A stretch of 64,000 nucleotides of DNA from Terriglobia bacterium (GTDB lineage: Bacteria > Acidobacteriota > Terriglobia > Acidiferrales > UBA7541), in contig OY968796.1 of NCBI GenBank assembly GCA_963695545.1, positions 3,360,001 to 3,424,000 of the forward strand. Reading direction: 5' to 3'. Positions 21,001-54,000 of this stretch are shown piece after piece. The position numbers are program-made. Position 1 is the stretch's first letter. Every line of letters starts with the position of its first letter.

Positions 21001-24000
21001 TATTCGCGAGACCTGTGGATGTGAGGCCAGCCAGAGCGTAAGTCGGATTCATCATCGGAAGGCCGGTGGTCGCGTTGATGCCCAGCATCTTGGCGACCGC
21101 GGTGTCGATCACGCCGGTGCCGCAGGCCATCGGACTGGCTGTCGATTGGGTGTTGCACGGCTCGCCGTTCGTCAGGAAATTGCTGATGTCCGTGGTTCCC
21201 GGCATGTGCTGCGTGGTCGAAGCCAGGTTGCGCAGCGCCTCGCGCTGGTAGCCGGCGAAGAAAAACAGTTTGTTCTTCTTGACCGGGCCGCCGAAGGTGC
21301 CGCCGTACTGGTTGCGCTTGATCACGTCGGTCGGCGCGAGATAATTTTTCGCGTTGAACACCGGATTGCGGATGTAATCGAAGGCATCGCCGTGAAAGGC
21401 GTTGGTGCCGCTGTTGGTGATCACGTTCACCACGGCGCCGGCGTTGTTGCCATACTCGGCGGTGTAATTGCTGGTCTGCACGCTGAATTCGGCGAGCTCA
21501 TCGGGGAACGGGAACGGCTGGTTCACGCTGGTATACGTGTCCATGTAATCGCCGCCGTCGAGCAGGTAGCTGGTCTGATCGCCGCGCGTGCCGTTGGCGG
21601 AAATTGTGAGCGCGCCGGGGAAGGTTTTTTGCGGGCCCTGATCCATGCCGCCGTTCGGCGCGATCACCGCGCCGGCCACGGTGGCGGCGAGCTGCGCGAC
21701 GTTGCGGCCGTTGAGCGGGAGGTCGTTGATGCGCGCGCCTTCGACCACGGTTTTCAGCGTGGAGGTCGTAGTGTCAACCGCGAGCGCCGTCCCGGTCACC
21801 GTCACCGACTCCGATGCGGAGCCGAGCGAGAGTTGGAAATTTACGGTGAGGGACTGGTCGGCCAGCACGATGACGTCTTCGGATTCTCCCTTGAAACCCG
21901 AGGCGCTGACGCTCAGGTGATAGTTCGCCGGAGCCAGCGAAGGAAGGAGGAAAAATCCATTGGAGTCGGCCTCGGCATCGCGCTCGAAACTGGTGCCGGC
22001 TTGCGTTGCGGTCACTTTGGCGCTGGGTACCGCGCCGCCGCTGGGATCTGTGATGGTGCCGTTGATGGTGCCCAAGCCCTGGGCGTGGGTCAAGCATGGA
22101 GCCAACAACAGAAATGCGCATGCGCACAACAAACACAGCGGGCCAAAACGAGGTTTCACATTGCCTCCTGGTGTCTACCTAGACTCTCCCGCGTTGCCGC
22201 GGGGCCGTGAGCGTCCTACCTGGCGCTTACGGCGAACCTACTGCCGGTCGCATCGCCACGCTGCTTTCGCGCGTTACGCACCCAAGCGAGCGCATCCACG
22301 CATCAGCGACTGCGTCCAGCACCTTTCGAACGTGTTTCGGGGCCCGGTGCTTCTCTGCCGACTGGTTATGAGACAAAAAAACTGGAATAAAAATAAAACG
22401 TGTAAGCGATTTGAAATCCCTTTACGTGTACGTGCACGCAGCGCACACCCACGCTTCCTTGGCGCGAACTATATTCAAAGATTAAAACTTGTCAAGCACA
22501 AATTTAATGCCGGCATCGGCAATGGGCGTCCTGCTGTGCCAATCGGGTACGGGTTCTTCCGAGGGAGTTCGAGCGAGTTCGCGCAGAGAGCCACGGATCA
22601 CGATCAAGCCACCACCTCCGGCCTGAACGCCGCACACACCCCAGAACCGCATTCCCACCCCGTTAAGGAACCGAGCATCCGATACCGTGGGCAGGTTTTC
22701 GCACTTCGCGACCTGCATAGTCAAGCTTGAATATCTGTACGAAGCGTTTAGAATAACTGAACGATCGCGGCGGCCCCATTTGCGCTCGGGGGCGGCGTCG
22801 AAAAACCATCATGGATATCCGCCAGCTCGAGCTGTTCCTCGCCGTCGTGGATGAATCCGGAGTGACTCCGGCAGCCAGAAAGCTGAATCTTTCGCCCGGC
22901 GCCGTGAGCATGCAGATTCGAAACCTTTCGTCGGACGCCGGAACGGAATTGTTTGTTCGCGTGGGAAGGCGCTTGAAGCCCACGCCCGCGGCGCTGCGCC
23001 TGGCCGAGCGCGCGCGCGCGGTGGTCAAGCAGATGGAGCAGATTCAGAGCGATTTCAAGGACAACCCGCGGAGCGATAGCAAGCCATTCTGCTTCGGCGT
23101 GGGCAGCACCACGCTGGTCTACCGGCTGGGCGGACCGCTGCGCAATTTGCGCCGGCAATTTCCGCATTGCGATTTCAATGTGTCCGTGGGGCCGTCGGAA
23201 AAAATCGTGGCGGGATTGCTCGACCGGCAGATGGATCTCGGCCTGATTTCGCTGCCGATCGGCGAAGGGCAACTGGAGATCACGCCGCTTTACGATGAGG
23301 AGTTGCTGCTGATCCGGCCGTCAACCGCGCCGGTGCGCGGCGGAGCGATCCGCTCGATCGCTCCGGAGGATTTGGAGGGCGTGCCGTTTCTGCTCTATCC
23401 GAAACACAACAACATCATACGATTGAAAATCGATCGATTTCTCAGCGAGGTCGGCGTCACGCCGCGCGTGGTGCTCGAAGCCGACGATACCGAAACCATC
23501 AAGCGGCTGGTGGAATCCGGATTCGGATATTCGATTCTGCCGGAGTGCGCCGTGCTCGGTCAGCGCAGATTTTTTCACGTGCATCGCATCGGCCACAAAC
23601 GTTTGATCCGCAAACAGGCGCTGGCCGCGCCGCGCTCGGAATTTCCGCGCAAACTCACCCTGGCCATCGCGAATTTTCTGCAAACCGAGCTGCGCGATAC
23701 CTGATCGCGCACAACCGCGGCGCGCGTCGCGCGATGAGGCCGGCGATCGCGATTCGCGCGTCGCGCAATTTCAATCAAAGGAATAAGGCGACGTGCGGGA
23801 TGTACTGCGGCGTGTGGACGCCGATGCGTCCATGTCCAGCGAATCGGCGGCTTCGTTGTCGGAGGAATAGAGAGGGCGGCGCGTGGGTTTGCGCAGAGGA
23901 TATTCGCGGCCGCGCAGATTCGTCGCGGCGCATTGGCGGCAAACGGCTTTGCCGCATTTTTCGATTTCGGCTGCGCGGTCGCACATTCTGAAATAAAAAC

Positions 24001-51000: not shown

Positions 51001-54000
51001 CGAAGGCTTGAATGTTTTGCAAGGACTCGTTGCTTTGGCTATAGATTTCAATCGCGCTGCCGTTCGCGGAATATCCGCCGACGAAGAGATCCTGAAGTTT
51101 TCCCGCGCCGGCGCTGACGCCGGAGAAAAGCACGGGAAGCACGCCGGCGTCGGCCGAAAGCACGGCGGCCACTGGCCCATATCCGAATTGCGATTCGTCG
51201 TAGCCGCCGAGGCCGTGAATGCTCCAGCCCTGGCCGAGCGTGAGCGTGTTTGAGATGTTGAGCGCGCCGATCAGCCGGAAATCACAAGTGCCCGTCGTGG
51301 CCGGCAGATCGAGCGTGCCGTAGGCGTTGTAAAAACCGTTCGCCGCGGGCGCGTAGAGCACGCCGCCGGTCATTGTTCCGCCGCCGCGCGTGGTGGCGCA
51401 GGCCGAAGCCGCGGCGTTGATCGCGGCGGTGTCGTCGTGATAGATGGTCGCGCCGCTCGCGGCGGTTGTCGCGGATGCGCCGAGCGTGAGACTCGTGGTT
51501 CCGCCGCCGGACGCGATCGTGGCGAGCAGCCATTGCGGCGTGGCCGAAGACGGTGGAGCGGTGGGCACGTTCAGCGGCCAATACGCAACCGCGCCGACGC
51601 CGCGATCGACCCACTTGATCGGCTGCGCGATTGCGCCGGCGGTTTCCGTGGTGTTCGTGCCGCTCGATGTCCAGGTCAGCGTGAAAGACGGCGAAGGCGC
51701 GACGGCCGTGACCGTGAACGTGCCGTTGAAATTCGTCGTGCCGGAAACTGTGATTTGGCTGCCGACAATCGCGTAATTGCACGCGGTGCAAAATTGATTC
51801 ACGGACGCGGTGACCGACGAGCCGCCGGTGCGCGTGATGCTTGTGATGTTGTACGGCGGCGAGAGCTCGGCCGAGAACGTGCCCCACGCGGCGCCGTCTT
51901 TGTAAATCGCGTAGAACGCCGCGCCGGTGACCGGCGTGATCGCGCCCTGGATGAAATCCGTCGCGGTGAGCGTGGCCGGCGCGTTGGTCACCGTGAACGA
52001 CGTTGCCGCTGACGCCCCGCGCAGCGAATCGACGGCGACGACTTTGTAAGTGTGCGACGTCGAGCCGGTGGTTCCCTGCACCACGGCGGCGACTCCCGCC
52101 GGCGCGGCGAGCGAGCTCGCGGGGCCGGCGCCGGGGATCATCACGCCTTCACCGTTGGCAAAATCTTGCGCCGACGCGAGCGTTAGCGATGAAGAGCTCG
52201 CGGCGATTGTGCCGGTCGTCGTGGTGCTCGAACCGGACGCGCTCCACGCGGTGACGTCCCAGTAAGGAATCGGGCCTTTGAAAGAATTGTTGCCGGTCCA
52301 CGCGTTGTTCGCGCTGAGATTTCCTCCGCCACCGCCGCCGGTGATCGGATTTCCGTCAACGGTGAGCGTGCCGGCCACAGTCTCGTTTCCGCTAACGCCC
52401 AGATTTCCCGCGAGCGAAAGTGAAAACGCGGAGATGCCGCTGGTCGTGGTGACCGATGTGAACGTCGGCGACGATGGATCGCTCGGCAAAATCACATCGG
52501 GTAGCACGCGCGTGGTGATGCCGGGGCCGTAAATCTGAATCGTGTATTTTCCGGGCGCGGCGTAGAAAAAATAATTGCCCAGGCCGTCGGTGGAGACGGG
52601 ATTCGCAAGCGGCGTGGTGAGCGCGGAATTGGAATAGAGCGCGGCGAGCGGCGAGCACGGCGCGGTGGTGGTCGTCGCAGGCTCGGTGCAGATCGCAACG
52701 CTCGCGCCGGCCAGCGGCTGGCCGGTCGGGCCGAGCACGACGTCGTCGTGGCGCGAGCCTTGCGCGGCCGCCGTCGTCGCCATTGCCGCGCTCAACATCG
52801 CGCACAGCAGCACCAGTCCAATCAATTTCGGAAATCTCAATGTCTTCTTGCGAAAAGAAAATTCCGGTCAGAGAGGAACGCGAGCCGCGCAAAAGCGGCG
52901 TTGGCTACGGCAACATTTTCGCGGTGAATGTGGAACCGCCGGTGGCGCTCGAGACGTTGATGCGCAGGAATTTCGCGCGCACGCCGGTCACGGTGCGCGC
53001 TTCGCCGGCGGTATTCGTGCTGGTGTCGAGCGTCGCGTATTCGGTGGCCACGTCGGCCATCGCGCCTTGCAATTGAATGTTTACGGCCGAGGGCGCGGTG
53101 GCGAAAATAGTTTGCCAGCGCACGGTGCGGTCGTCGCTGGCGAAGCCCGAAGGATTCGTGAGCGCGAATTGCGCGCCGGCGCTCGCCGATGTCGGCAGCG
53201 TCTCGCCGTTGAAGCTGTAGCCCACGTCGCCTGGAAAAAGCGAATACGGCGGCAGCGCATTGTTGTAAGCCGGCATCGGGACCTCCGTGTGCGATTTGTT
53301 GTGCTGCGCAATCCGGTTCGCAATCGCGCGTCGGCGCGTTCGAGCGCTGACGCGCATTTTTGCGCGCGCGTTCGCACTCGCGCGGTTCGCGATTCTGTCT
53401 GCTGCTTATGCTTCTTGCCCTGCGGCGGGAAAAATCAGTGCAAAATAAAAAACCCCGACAGTCTGCCGGGGCGCTTGACACTTTTCTACAGGAAGCAGTA
53501 TAGCGCAGGACGATTTTTTTGTCAAGGCCCTCGGCGATTTTTAATTTCCATTCTTTGGGAGTGCGATATATCCTCCGCCGCAGTGGGGCGCGAAAAAGAG
53601 ATTCTTGGCGACGCGATGCAGAGCGCGCGCGCAGCGTGGCGAAGAACCGCGTAGAAGAAATGGGGGCGGCGATGCGAACGAGCGGAACTGTGGCGGCGAT
53701 GCGGAGATTGGTGCCGCGGCGCTGGAGAACTTCGCTGCGCTCGAGCGCGCTGACGCGGATCGCGCTAACGCCGCTCGTAGCGTTCACTTCGCTTGCGGCG
53801 CTCGCGTTGTGCGCGATTCCGACGGCGAGCGCGCCGCCAGCTACTCCGACGACCACCGAGCGGCTGCAAACGCTGGCGCAATCGATCACGTTCGATTGGG
53901 CGGCGACGCATCCGCTCGTCGCGACGGCGCTTGGCTTGAGCGACGAAGATGGGCAGCTCGACACGCCGTCGGCCGCGGAGAACGCGCGCGATCTGGCGAC

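Follow-up and report, generated by a model that had tools for sequence, protein, structure and literature searches.

The 64,000-nt window analysed here (Terriglobia bacterium GCA_963695545.1, family UBA7541; contig OY968796.1, positions 3,360,001-3,424,000) carries a cluster of phage-like genes on its minus strand at 23.8-53.3 kb. An earlier note took it for a domesticated, vertically inherited gene transfer agent (GTA) and not a prophage. Is it either? Packaging of host DNA in particles is the defining feature of a GTA. We compared the locus (genome G000) with loci across the family, including that of the congener G051 (called G001 earlier). We favor, at about even odds (roughly 0.5), a grounded prophage whose late region has been kept vertically and which, where intact, would have a GTA-like or lateral-transducing function.

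Gene content of the cluster

The phage-like nature of the cluster is confirmed by a large terminase, a portal, a podovirus-type major capsid protein, a nozzle-like 971-aa protein, a tailspike-like protein and a lytic transglycosylase (Table 1). The capsid protein (423 aa) also matches NCBIfam capsid_maj_Podo at 9.9e-9, under that model's cut-off. No small terminase subunit was recognised. F12 is predicted from its position to be a head completion or adaptor protein. The portal-sized ORF singled out earlier is real but is shortened in the window by a 1-nt frameshift: as read it spans 41624-43720 (minus strand), an extra A follows 41694 in the contigs of all four runs examined, and the C-terminal 80-114 residues run on in another frame to 41343. 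CxxC pairs are conserved in its Zn-ribbon insert, an orthologue has a weak phrog_332 match, and the fold model has a pLDDT of 41.7.

Table 1. Features of the cluster and its surroundings, in window coordinates
Feature	Position	Strand	Basis or remark
Doubtful terminal ORF, 213 aa, TTG start	23771-24412	-	Left edge in the earlier note
F26, last conserved element gene	24434-25225	-	Family in 12 loci
Genome-specific insert, ORFs of 111, 144 and 143 aa, the last DUF6941	25307-26480	-	PF22091 2.7e-16
Lytic transglycosylase, SLT domain	26666-27109	-	PF01464 2.3e-13
tRNA-Gly(GCC)	27331-27405	-	ARAGORN
F24, small, one hydrophobic segment	27514-27759	-	13 loci; TM-like window at residues 2-24
F8 (184 aa), F9 (173 aa), F18 (162 aa)	27925-29936	-	14-18 loci and phages G345, G346
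F2, 971 aa, likely podovirus tail nozzle (tail tubular B-like)	30467-33382	-	Foldseek
F20, conserved, 115-146 aa	33413-33853	-	14 loci and G345
F3, ~240 aa elsewhere	33935-34660	-	Broken by in-frame TAA at 34361-34363
F33, ~52 aa	34849-35004	-	tblastn from G051, G012, G059
F19, 264 aa, zinc ribbon	35635-36429	-	tblastn from G051, G012, G059
F12, directly downstream of capsid gene	37604-38395	-	16 loci; both phages at 58-69% identity
Major capsid protein, podovirus type	38414-39685	-	phrog_14242 1e-6
IS3-family insertion sequence at place of missing F11 (orfA 40914-41225, orfB 40048-40890)	40008-41257	-	HTH_Tnp_1 and rve domains
Portal protein, ~790 aa, Zn-ribbon insert	41343-43720	-	Position and size
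F13, small, conserved, between terminase and portal	43733-44026	-	16 loci and both phages
Large terminase subunit	44171-45748	-	PF03237 (Terminase_6N), PF17289 (Terminase_6C), phrog_979 4.6e-41
F21, small, conserved	45755-46153	-	Comparison across loci
876-aa ORF, specific to this genome	46702-49332	-	Unmatched in 28 loci
F38, tailspike-like protein	49595-52840	-	Weak CarboxypepD_reg match
F7, conserved, 123 aa, upstream end of element	52905-53276	-	19 loci
Probable phage early-region remnants: F39, F59, F61, divergently oriented F34	56856-59758	mixed	Locus comparison

F2 is likely a podovirus tail nozzle. Its model (mean pLDDT 57) matches the tail complexes of Pa223, SU10, P22 gp10, Sf6 and T7 in Foldseek at E values of 7e-8 to 4e-4, with TM scores of only 0.13-0.25, and its sequence has a weak phrog_3287 (virion structural protein) match. 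F38 is the fastest-evolving gene of the element (dN/dS 0.29-0.53); its sister families F43 and F116 have a pectate-lyase-like beta-helix and PHROG tail-spike matches. Together with F21 it is shifted upstream of the terminase in this genus, F21 lying between the spike gene and F3 in other genera. Two genes had been described as not conserved: F38 turned out to be partly conserved, whereas the 876-aa ORF has indeed no match in the other loci and belongs to no Pfam, PHROG or NCBIfam family.

The transglycosylase, which has PHROG endolysin and lytic tail protein matches and is conserved in 15 loci and both complete phages described below, is predicted to act as an endolysin or else as a wall hydrolase carried in the virion, and F24 is predicted to be holin-like. 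F8, F9 and F18 matched no Pfam or PHROG family and are putative virion or ejection-type proteins; the F33/F19 region (34849-36429) gives weak Zn-ribbon Pfam matches. F26 is the immediate neighbour of dsbA in most genomes, carries an N-terminal hydrophobic segment (TM-like window at residues 13-38) and is present in phage G345 at 31% identity. The terminal ORF beyond it matches other loci over only 26-36% of its length and was not called by a composition-based gene caller. F7, at the opposite end, matches phage G346 and G318 more weakly; its nearest named Atlas cluster is XepA (0.92), a lead only.

The earlier observation that integrase and repressor genes are missing holds across 20 loci, where neither an integrase or recombinase (PF00589, PF00239, PF07508) nor a repressor was found among 186 Pfam-scanned proteins (70 multi-genome family representatives and 116 singletons of at least 150 aa); the scan returned only IS transposases and a few cargo genes. 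No clear replication gene was found in these loci either, but just outside the cluster F59 (57347-58396) has a weak replication-initiator match (phrog_1408, 2.9e-4). F59 belongs to a group, with F39, F61 and F34, that lies beside the element only (9 loci, against 0 of 9 empty sites). Phage G345 has counterparts of F39 (68% identity) and F61 (41%) in its early region, and the group is probably a remnant of a phage early region.

A fixed chromosomal site and co-divergence with the host

The head protein, earlier described as single-copy and conserved in the family, is now traced to 48 of 81 family genomes in 21 of 29 genera (59-92% identity), at one locus per genome; no second locus with the same capsid was found among the 81. 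Where head gene and nadE share a contig (n = 25 genomes), they lie 15-35 kb apart in 23, the exceptions being G051 (62.5 kb) and a remnant in G043 (4.3 kb). The order nadE-dsbA, element, F14 recurs in at least 16 genera, within a host backbone that is the same in bearing and empty genomes. Collinearity with G051 (C5, 495.7-528.5 kb) stands, but the immediate flanks there are unlike those of the window. Among 250 genomes from outside the family just 4 gave a match; in the two whose context was readable, G261 and G318, the locus is of a divergent phage type, and nadE is absent from the part of the contig compared. One locus across at least 16 genera supports the view that the cluster is not an ordinary mobile prophage.

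The late region has been inherited mainly vertically and under purifying selection. The element tree (10 genes, 19 genomes) and the host tree (23-protein ribosomal operon) have 12 of 16 splits in common, with a Mantel r of 0.85 (0 of 9999 permutations as high). Within the same genome pair, synonymous divergence of element genes approximates that of flanking host genes: dS is 0.07-0.37 (head excluded) versus 0.13-0.24 for G059-G075, 0.65-2.1 versus 1.0-2.0 for G003-G038, and 0.75-1.44 versus 0.99-2.9 for G016-G025. Values of dN/dS range from 0.03 to about 0.5 over the element (head 0.08-0.25, nozzle 0.12-0.25, portal 0.17-0.28; host flanks 0.02-0.24). Within one host clade the trees conflict: three splits of the species tree fail the AU test on the element data (p 0.0007-0.005), and the G023+G058 clade of the element tree is rejected on the ribosomal data (p 0.0185).

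Such synteny could be mimicked by active temperate phages that reuse one attachment site with a recombinase encoded elsewhere. Related phages with integrases do exist, 75 contigs that encode the capsid are classed as viral in IMG/VR, and the conflict within one clade would fit. We nevertheless regard this explanation as largely refuted and very improbable, given that the scan of 20 loci returned no integrase and that element and flanking dS agree. Of the PF00589 genes in the neighbourhood just one is conserved, a Xer-like gene of the host that lies 21-45 kb beyond nadE in bearing and empty genomes alike, and no att-like repeat is common to the locus and the phage spacer between integrase and F26. 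Moreover, deletion endpoints differ between the empty genomes G014 and G056, unlike precise excision, and 70 of the 75 IMG/VR contigs carry the chromosome-type terminase and portal.

Losses, damage and living phage relatives

The element has been deleted repeatedly, with 13 independent losses on a 41-genome tree, as remnants show: G018 retains the tail half and has IS3 and IS21 at the former place of the head genes, G017 and G074 keep one internal gene and a nozzle fragment, and G043 a head fragment. The window's copy is itself damaged. The scaffold-like F11, present in 18 of 18 other loci, is absent from the entire genome; a recently active IS3 (nine copies in this genome, 99.9-100% identity) has replaced it, and one metagenome contig bridges the head-IS3 junction. 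F3 is a single ORF in 19 other loci, and its alignment to G051 crosses the stop codon at 81% identity. Lacking F11 and with F3 interrupted, this copy is probably unable to assemble heads. The insert ORFs at 25307-26480 are unmatched in 28 other loci. The tRNA gene is a second GCC copy (the other lies at genome position 2540024), and no tRNA occurs at this place in the other loci scanned.

These losses, remnants and damage are what would be expected of a functionless defective prophage that persists by linkage, slow decay and occasional repair from phages on its way to loss; live phage relatives could re-supply genes, and terminase or portal ORFs are split in G012, G013, G019, G051 and G058. 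We consider that explanation unlikely. Across three deep host clades about 15 genes have stayed intact and collinear; their dN/dS resembles that of host genes and their dS that of host flanks, whereas neutral DNA would not keep ORFs at synonymous divergence above 1. In the assemblies where element ORFs are split, host genes are broken too (nadE in G019, dsbA in G013, rplB in G054).

Two complete IMG/VR phages, G345 (47,698 bp, 97-bp direct terminal repeat) and G346 (46,643 bp, 127-bp direct terminal repeat, CheckV 100%), share the late genes of the element and their order. Identity to the element is 80-82% for the capsid, 49-57% for the nozzle and 49-58% for the portal, with only 29-37% for the terminase; their late module also includes F12, F19, F3, F8, F9, F18, the SLT protein and F26. 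They have in addition about 20 kb of early genes, tyrosine integrases, extra genes between terminase and portal, a Gp3-like RDF, an HTH_36/HNH/DnaD_N protein, RNase_H_2 and FtsK_gamma. Because these phages hold the whole structural module, we read the element as derived from a living family of temperate phages and since grounded. In G345 the integrase adjoins F26 across the circle, so that integration there would bring F26 and dsbA together, the arrangement seen in the chromosomes. In the trees, capsid and nozzle of the phages are nested within the chromosomal copies, and the G025 terminase is closest to that of provirus G349, which argues for gene exchange with live phages. Similarity to the capsids of the 47-kb phages suggests that the element capsid is probably full-size, with a capacity of ~47 kb. 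It would then have room for more than the ~30-kb cluster. Classical GTAs are marked by capsids that cannot take up their whole gene cluster, a feature that the element probably lacks. Of the earlier reading, the fixed locus, co-divergence and purifying selection stand, but temperate phage kin, frequent loss and the F11-less copy sit poorly with a domesticated GTA that is no prophage.

Proposed origin and comparison with known systems

In the grounded-prophage reading, a temperate short-tailed (P22/T7-like) phage would have integrated downstream of nadE-dsbA in an early family ancestor, as gene order suggests, and then lost its integrase and nearly all of a ~20-kb early and replication region. 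This would have left a late region of terminase, portal, scaffold-like F11, capsid, completion proteins, tailspike, nozzle, ejection-type proteins, lytic transglycosylase and small membrane proteins, passed down mainly vertically while the spike gene diversified and many lineages suffered deletions. An intact element, a candidate GTA by its genes, may be expressed in a fraction of cells and build podovirus-like particles. We propose that these would take up chromosomal DNA by headful packaging, since the element is incapable of excision and replication; producing cells would lyse and the DNA would reach kin. If true, a soil Acidobacteriota family has a GTA-like or in situ (lateral) transducing particle.

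A domesticated particle could instead serve another role, as a PBSX-like killer or as a module that excludes or recombines with related phages. A fast-evolving spike is expected of a part in contact with cell surfaces, none of the 81 genomes has a second capsid locus, the nesting of phage capsid and nozzle suggests recombination with infecting phages, and F7 offers its lead to XepA of PBSX. Set against this, terminase, portal and capsid are all under purifying selection, which pure exclusion would not need, and no immunity or repressor gene was recognised in 20 loci. We judge such a role possible but doubtful, and keep the grounded prophage as the preferred reading.

The chromosomal element differs from G345 and G346 in lacking their early genes and integrases and in being fixed at one locus. 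PBSX of Bacillus is likewise chromosome-fixed, phage-derived and conserved among related species; it does not excise and packages host DNA. PBSX, however, is a killer particle of the myovirus type whose head is small, and the sequence link is a weak match to the PBSX-family terminase model TIGR01547 (8.7e-5, far under cut-off) and nothing further. The RcGTA-type GTAs of Alphaproteobacteria, as described by Kogay and Zhaxybayeva (2024, PMC10883770), resemble the element: they are chromosomal clusters of phage head and tail genes that lack genes for integration and replication, have passed mostly vertically over long times, are under purifying selection and are often lost. Their genes are unrelated and siphovirus-like; the element, with nozzle and tailspike, is ~30 kb long, has a probably full-size (~47 kb) capsid and close live temperate kin, and has no known regulatory link to the host. 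FpGTA of Faecalibacterium prausnitzii occupies 10.5 and 5.5 kb in two loci and, by the account of Borodovich et al. (2026, PMC12946183), is backed by particle, proteomic and packaged-DNA evidence, its roughly 40-nm capsids carrying about 8.5 kb. Compared by description, the element is a single ~30-kb locus with a large capsid protein of 423 aa; the two have in common a particle cluster of the short-tailed-phage type (terminase, portal, scaffold, capsid) that is conserved among related species, and a podovirus-like form is proposed for both.

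Gene content and particle type

Consecutive genes, all on the minus strand, fill the window from 23.8 to 53.3 kb. Pfam, PHROGs and NCBIfam models recognize a terminase, a capsid protein, an SLT transglycosylase and an IS3 element among them, bearing out the phage-type, one-strand cluster of the earlier note. The composition of this element (G+C 0.621, GC3 0.77) is near that of its flanks (0.60 and 0.73) and of the genome (G+C 0.606). Besides nadE, a dsbA-like gene and fumarase, the flanks hold ordinary host genes: two LysR regulators, a TonB-dependent receptor and a DUF885 gene. 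In the genome that holds the window (G000), and in no other, about 10 kb of host-type genes separate dsbA from the element; in other genera F26, the family at the dsbA end, adjoins dsbA. A tRNA-Gly gene lies within the cluster. The earlier note had reported it missing from a congener, and the other loci scanned have no tRNA at the matching position. A 352-aa ORF of unusually low GC3 (0.52) that belongs to no family separates the DUF885 gene from probable remnants of an early region; its sole match is to a very weak ICE-protein model (0.0043).

Features of the element and its surroundings, in window coordinates
Feature	Position	Strand	Remarks
IS3 copy just upstream of nadE	8930-10181
nadE, host flank	10721-12397
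dsbA-like gene, host flank	12400-13398
Host-type genes, G000 only	13400-23770		two LysR, 1335-aa TonB-dependent receptor, small ORFs
SLT lytic transglycosylase	26666-27109	-	Pfam, 2.3e-13
tRNA-Gly(GCC)	27331-27405	-	genome's second GCC copy
In-frame TAA in F3	34361-34363
Major capsid protein	38414-39685	-	phrog_14242 1e-6; NCBIfam capsid_maj_Podo 9.9e-9, under the model's cut-off
IS3 copy within the element	40008-41257	-	1,250 bp; orfA 40914-41225, orfB 40048-40890 (domain matches)
Large terminase	44171-45748	-	Terminase_6N/6C; phrog_979 4.6e-41
352-aa ORF	55757-56815
F39, F59, F61, F34	56856-59758		F59 at 57347-58396
Fumarase, host flank	61485-62942

We compared about 60 kb around the capsid gene in 18 further genomes, together with the nadE side in 10 genomes lacking a capsid match, and clustered all ORFs into families (F-numbers). 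The host backbone is uniform everywhere: F27, F4, nadE, dsbA, the element, (fumarase), F14, F23, F25, F15, F17 and F22. The element is transcribed toward dsbA and reads F7, variable genes, F33, terminase, F13, portal, F11, capsid, F12, F19, a tailspike-like gene (F38, F43, F116 or F166), F21, F3, F20, F2, F9, F18, F8, F24, SLT and F26. In the window's genus, the spike gene and F21 have been relocated upstream of the terminase.

This is a podovirus-like (P22/T7-type) virion module: after terminase, portal, putative scaffold and capsid come a nozzle-like protein, a tailspike-like protein, and proteins of ejection or wall-hydrolase type. Tail tube, sheath and tape-measure families were found in no scan of element proteins. 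The capsid matches a podovirus-type model (capsid_maj_Podo, under its cut-off), and the spike is pectate-lyase-like and has PHROG tail-spike matches. Foldseek aligned the 971-aa F2 with the nozzle or tail complexes of Pa223, SU10, P22 gp10, Sf6 and T7 gp12 (E 7e-8 to 4e-4, at TM 0.13-0.25 and from a mediocre model of mean pLDDT 57.2), so that F2 may be nozzle-like. Because an AlphaFold model built from 12 sequences was unusable (pLDDT 41.7), the portal is called from position, size and a weak PHROG match. F11, between portal and capsid, is Ala-rich and conserved mainly toward its C terminus; its position, and a phage scaffolding protein as nearest named Atlas cluster (0.87), offer a lead to a scaffold role. 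Profile searches of the PDB with the portal, F11 and F2 alignments gave no relevant match. The SLT gene and the small hydrophobic F24 and F26 may form a lysis end, and no small terminase subunit was recognized among the element's genes. The portal also has a conserved zinc-ribbon-like insert (CxxC...CxxC, window residues ~267-312), unusual for portal proteins, for which the PDB profile search matched only zinc-finger proteins.

To the Pfam scan for mobility genes we submitted 186 proteins from the dsbA-F14 interval of 20 loci; 70 of them represent families found in several genomes, and 116 are singletons of at least 150 aa. Outside this set were singletons below 150 aa and eight representatives straddling joins of fetched stretches, as well as six window singletons and two multi-genome representatives (the window's IS3 orfA and orfB) that were scanned separately. 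None of the 186 belonged to a recombinase family of the tyrosine or serine type, a repressor family or a replication family. The earlier note had seen no integrase, repressor or replication gene in the window, and this extends to 20 loci with one weak exception, F59. This family, present in four loci, gives the sole hint of an early gene, a match at 2.9e-4 to phrog_1408 ("replication initiation protein"). What the scan recognized instead was IS transposases (IS3, IS21, IS200 and DDE types) and various cargo genes, among them Fic, AAA_15 with DUF3226, and NHL-repeat genes. F39, F59, F61 and F34 occur only beside the element, in nine loci and at none of nine empty sites; F7, F34, F39 and F61 matched no known family, and no regulator was recognized. 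Across the family, the top hits among the best 150 of 838 PF00589 matches were to a host Xer-like gene 21-45 kb beyond nadE, in element-bearing and empty genomes alike. In the loci scanned, the chromosome thus holds particle genes but, F59 aside, none recognized as serving to integrate, excise or autonomously replicate the element, as in a gene transfer agent (GTA). The integrase or recombinase with att sites and the lysogeny and replication modules of a functional temperate prophage were not found in these 20 loci, and a still-mobile phage is largely excluded.

As cargo, G003 has an AAA_15/AbiEii-like ATPase alongside a DUF3226 protein (L047:17494-19228), and G038 (L050:6442-7641) and G051 (L032:399-956) have Fic-domain proteins; all of these may be defense or toxin-type morons. 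One host clade (loci of G019, G050, G032, G013, G023, G058, G017 and G074) has a further gene within the element, F36 (e.g., L099:8972-10903). It codes for an NHL-repeat beta-propeller protein of ~650 aa, is flanked by F2 and F3, and runs against the direction of the other genes. At the contig edge in G026, ~9 kb past the element's F7 end, is a tail tube protein of the T4 gp19 type (PF06841, 8.3e-42; L103:12196-12777), which probably belongs to an unrelated contractile system.

Chromosomal place, descent and loss

The capsid protein matches 48 of 81 sampled genomes of the family (four of the 81, G002, G009, G022 and G034, being unpublished), in 21 of 29 genera, at 59-92% identity and with one locus each, so the earlier note's single-copy, family-wide head protein holds in a wider sample. 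In a draw across the class, 35 of 50 genomes of the family had a capsid match, vs 4 of 250 from twelve other families. Context could be read for two of these four: G261 and G318 carry divergent phage-type loci (terminase 33-39% identical) with no nadE in the fetched contig stretch. The others are G220, a 4.3-kb contig with the capsid gene alone, and G193.

Within the family the element keeps one place. The marker nadE, a single-copy gene, could be located in 76 of the 81 genomes; it shares a contig with the capsid gene in 25 of the 48 capsid-bearing genomes, and the two lie 15-35 kb apart in 23 of these 25, which span 16 genera and take in the most divergent copies (G016, G025 and G045; capsid identity 59-61%). 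The distance is 62.5 kb in G051, the congener compared in the earlier note, and 4.3 kb in G043, which has a capsid fragment only. In the remaining 23 the two genes are on separate contigs, 22 of these assemblies being fragmented and one, G050, consisting of three contigs.

A host tree (41 genomes, 23 proteins of the ribosomal-protein operon) and an element tree (19 genomes, 10 core families) have the same three deep clades and 12 of 16 splits in common. Pairwise element and host distances correlate with a Mantel r of 0.85, a value reached in 0 of 9999 permutations. Within a genome pair, element dS matches that of the flanking host genes (NG86, which saturates above ~1): 0.07-0.37, head excluded, vs 0.13-0.24 for G059-G075; 0.65-2.1 vs 1.0-2.0 for G003-G038; and 0.75-1.44 vs 0.99-2.9 for G016-G025. 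Element dN/dS is about 0.03-0.5 overall (capsid 0.08-0.25, F2 0.12-0.25, portal 0.17-0.28, terminase 0.11-0.33, spike 0.29-0.53), and that of host flanks is 0.02-0.24. Descent of the element is therefore mainly vertical and under purifying selection, the long-term pattern expected of a GTA, with significant conflict inside one clade. There, the element data reject three species-tree splits that bear on where G019, G058 and G023 belong (AU p 0.0007-0.005 in three completed tests). Of the element's own clades, G023+G058 is rejected by the ribosomal data (p 0.0185) and G019+G032+G050 is not (p 0.093). The host tree is itself unstable at the conflicting nodes (supports 13-90, with a different arrangement in a second ribosomal analysis), and G019, G013 and G058 are assemblies with frameshifted genes. 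The conflict could be an artifact or reflect some exchange.

The element is also frequently deleted. In empty genomes, dsbA joins F14 directly (G014) or nadE joins fumarase (G024, G044 and G006), and G056 and G015 retain a few other genes at the site. Endpoints differ within one genus (G014 vs G056), so excision there was not precise. G018 retains the tail half and F7, with IS3 and IS21 in place of the head genes; its IS3 is 87% identical in protein sequence to that of the window. In G017 and G074, which are closely related to the element-bearing G058, a single internal NHL-repeat gene is left, along with part of F2. Since this gene, F36, is the sole element-internal gene to outlast deletion there, it may benefit the host. 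On the 41-genome tree the pattern of presence requires 13 changes, or 13 events if only losses are allowed and 17 if only gains; gaps in the assemblies may account for some of the absences, since nadE too is missing from G042 and G027.

The G000 copy is damaged. By tblastn, all 18 of the other element loci tested have F11, for which the G000 genome offers no match anywhere; an IS3 occupies its position, which confirms the insertion noted earlier between head and portal genes and adds the missing gene. Nine IS3 copies in G000, two in the window and seven elsewhere, are 99.9-100% identical, so the IS was active in the recent past. A search of sequencing runs for the locus returned four DNA runs, with no RNA run among those listed. 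They come from one study that may include the source sample, and their contigs are short and of low depth: one bridges the capsid-IS junction, and none has a joint that skips the element or the IS. The in-frame TAA in F3 interrupts an alignment otherwise 81% identical and may be real or a sequencing error. Truncation of the portal's C terminus by IS3 was considered and rejected. Short-read contigs of all four runs carry an extra A after 41694, so the G000 assembly has a 1-nt deletion in an A-run, and the conserved C terminus runs on in another frame to 41343. This indel, together with a completeness of 93.76% for a one-contig genome, suggests residual indel errors elsewhere. Apparent pseudogenes in G075 and G054 were likewise rejected as a sign of decay, host genes being broken in the same assemblies. 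The IS3 family seems to drive decay of the locus. Slow neutral decay is a rival account of the element: the deletions would suit it, and the low dN/dS of the retained genes speaks for constraint.

Live phage relatives

IMG/VR contains 75 contigs (L146-L220) with this capsid at 64-95% identity. Seventy of them have the chromosome-type portal and terminase where the stretch reaches those genes, and are most simply, and probably, metagenome pieces of the host locus. Two others are complete temperate phages, new relative to the earlier note: G345 (47,698 bp, direct terminal repeat 97 bp) and G346 (46,643 bp, direct terminal repeat 127 bp, CheckV 100%). Their late module agrees with that of the element in content and order, with phage-chromosome identities of 80-82% for the capsid, 49-57% for F2, 49-58% for the portal, 58-69% for F12 and 29-37% for the terminase, and they also bear homologues of F39, F61, F34 and F7. 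Unlike the element, they have a further ~20 kb with tyrosine integrases, a Gp3-like recombination directionality factor, an HTH_36/HNH/DnaD_N protein, DUF6745 and DnaJ-domain proteins, RNase_H_2 and FtsK_gamma. A full-length integrase adjoins F26 across the circle of G345. Were G345 to integrate at this junction, one end of the prophage would carry F26 and the opposite end the integrase with the early genes, which is exactly the chromosomal layout with the integrase end deleted. The G345 int-F26 spacer had only chance matches of 11-13 nt at the dsbA and F14 boundaries of all loci. The gene order suggests one ancient insertion, later fixed in the chromosome, from which integrase and early region would then have been lost.

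In single-gene trees, the phage capsid and F2 nest among chromosomal copies, both phages on long branches: the partners of G345 are G003 and G038 (supports 91 and 99), and those of G346 are G012 or its wider clade (supports 94 and 89). The portals of the phages split off deep in their tree, and the phage terminases fall outside as an outgroup; the G025 terminase is nearest to that of an integrase-bearing provirus (G349). At the level of gene trees, the nested capsid and F2 genes and the G025-G349 terminase demonstrate that the element and related phages exchange genes. Since the chromosomal copies keep a host-like phylogeny, the direction is likely to be mainly phage borrowing from the resident element.

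The element beside known transfer systems

The earlier note read the cluster as a vertically inherited, GTA-like element and not a prophage. The fixed place, the codivergence with the host and the absence of mobility genes from 20 loci uphold the inheritance. The GTA label fares less well: live phages carry the same late module, and the hallmark of a capsid too small for its own genes probably does not apply. The capsid protein has the length of its counterpart in phages whose genomes measure 46.6-47.7 kb and shares 80-82% identity with it, so the capsid is probably full-size, and the cluster is ~30 kb. Intact copies may produce particles, fill them with chromosomal DNA and so pass that DNA on to kin in the manner of a GTA. 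Another domesticated role, as killer particle, phage exclusion system or recombination reservoir, is a rival reading.

To a bolder reading we give a probability of roughly one in four. The element would be a chromosome-locked, full-size (~47-kb headful) podovirus machine across this abundant soil family of Acidobacteriota that, being unable to excise, packages in situ and moves large blocks of host DNA between kin, either directionally from the nadE locus, as in lateral transduction, or randomly. It would then be a mechanistically novel GTA whose capsid is big enough for the element's own genes, and a reservoir on which live phages repeatedly draw for capsid and nozzle genes.

An index-level search of the literature on GTAs in Acidobacteria, on domesticated vertically inherited prophages and on the family found no description of the element, and the examined passages of a 2018 survey of acidobacterial prophages (PMC5900883) do not mention one. 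Counts of soil viruses and virus-host links for this family are probably inflated by the host locus, given the 70 of 75 IMG/VR contigs. If particles are made and carry host DNA, the element would represent an independent GTA lineage in Acidobacteriota, among the most abundant and least tractable soil phyla, and a domesticated element whose free-living phage relatives remain at hand for comparison. RcGTA-type elements are mostly vertically inherited and maintained (PMC10883770), and FpGTA of Faecalibacterium has been reported as a podovirus-like GTA backed by experiments (PMC12946183). The element described here, if active, would be more like a locked-in generalized or lateral transducer than a classical GTA.
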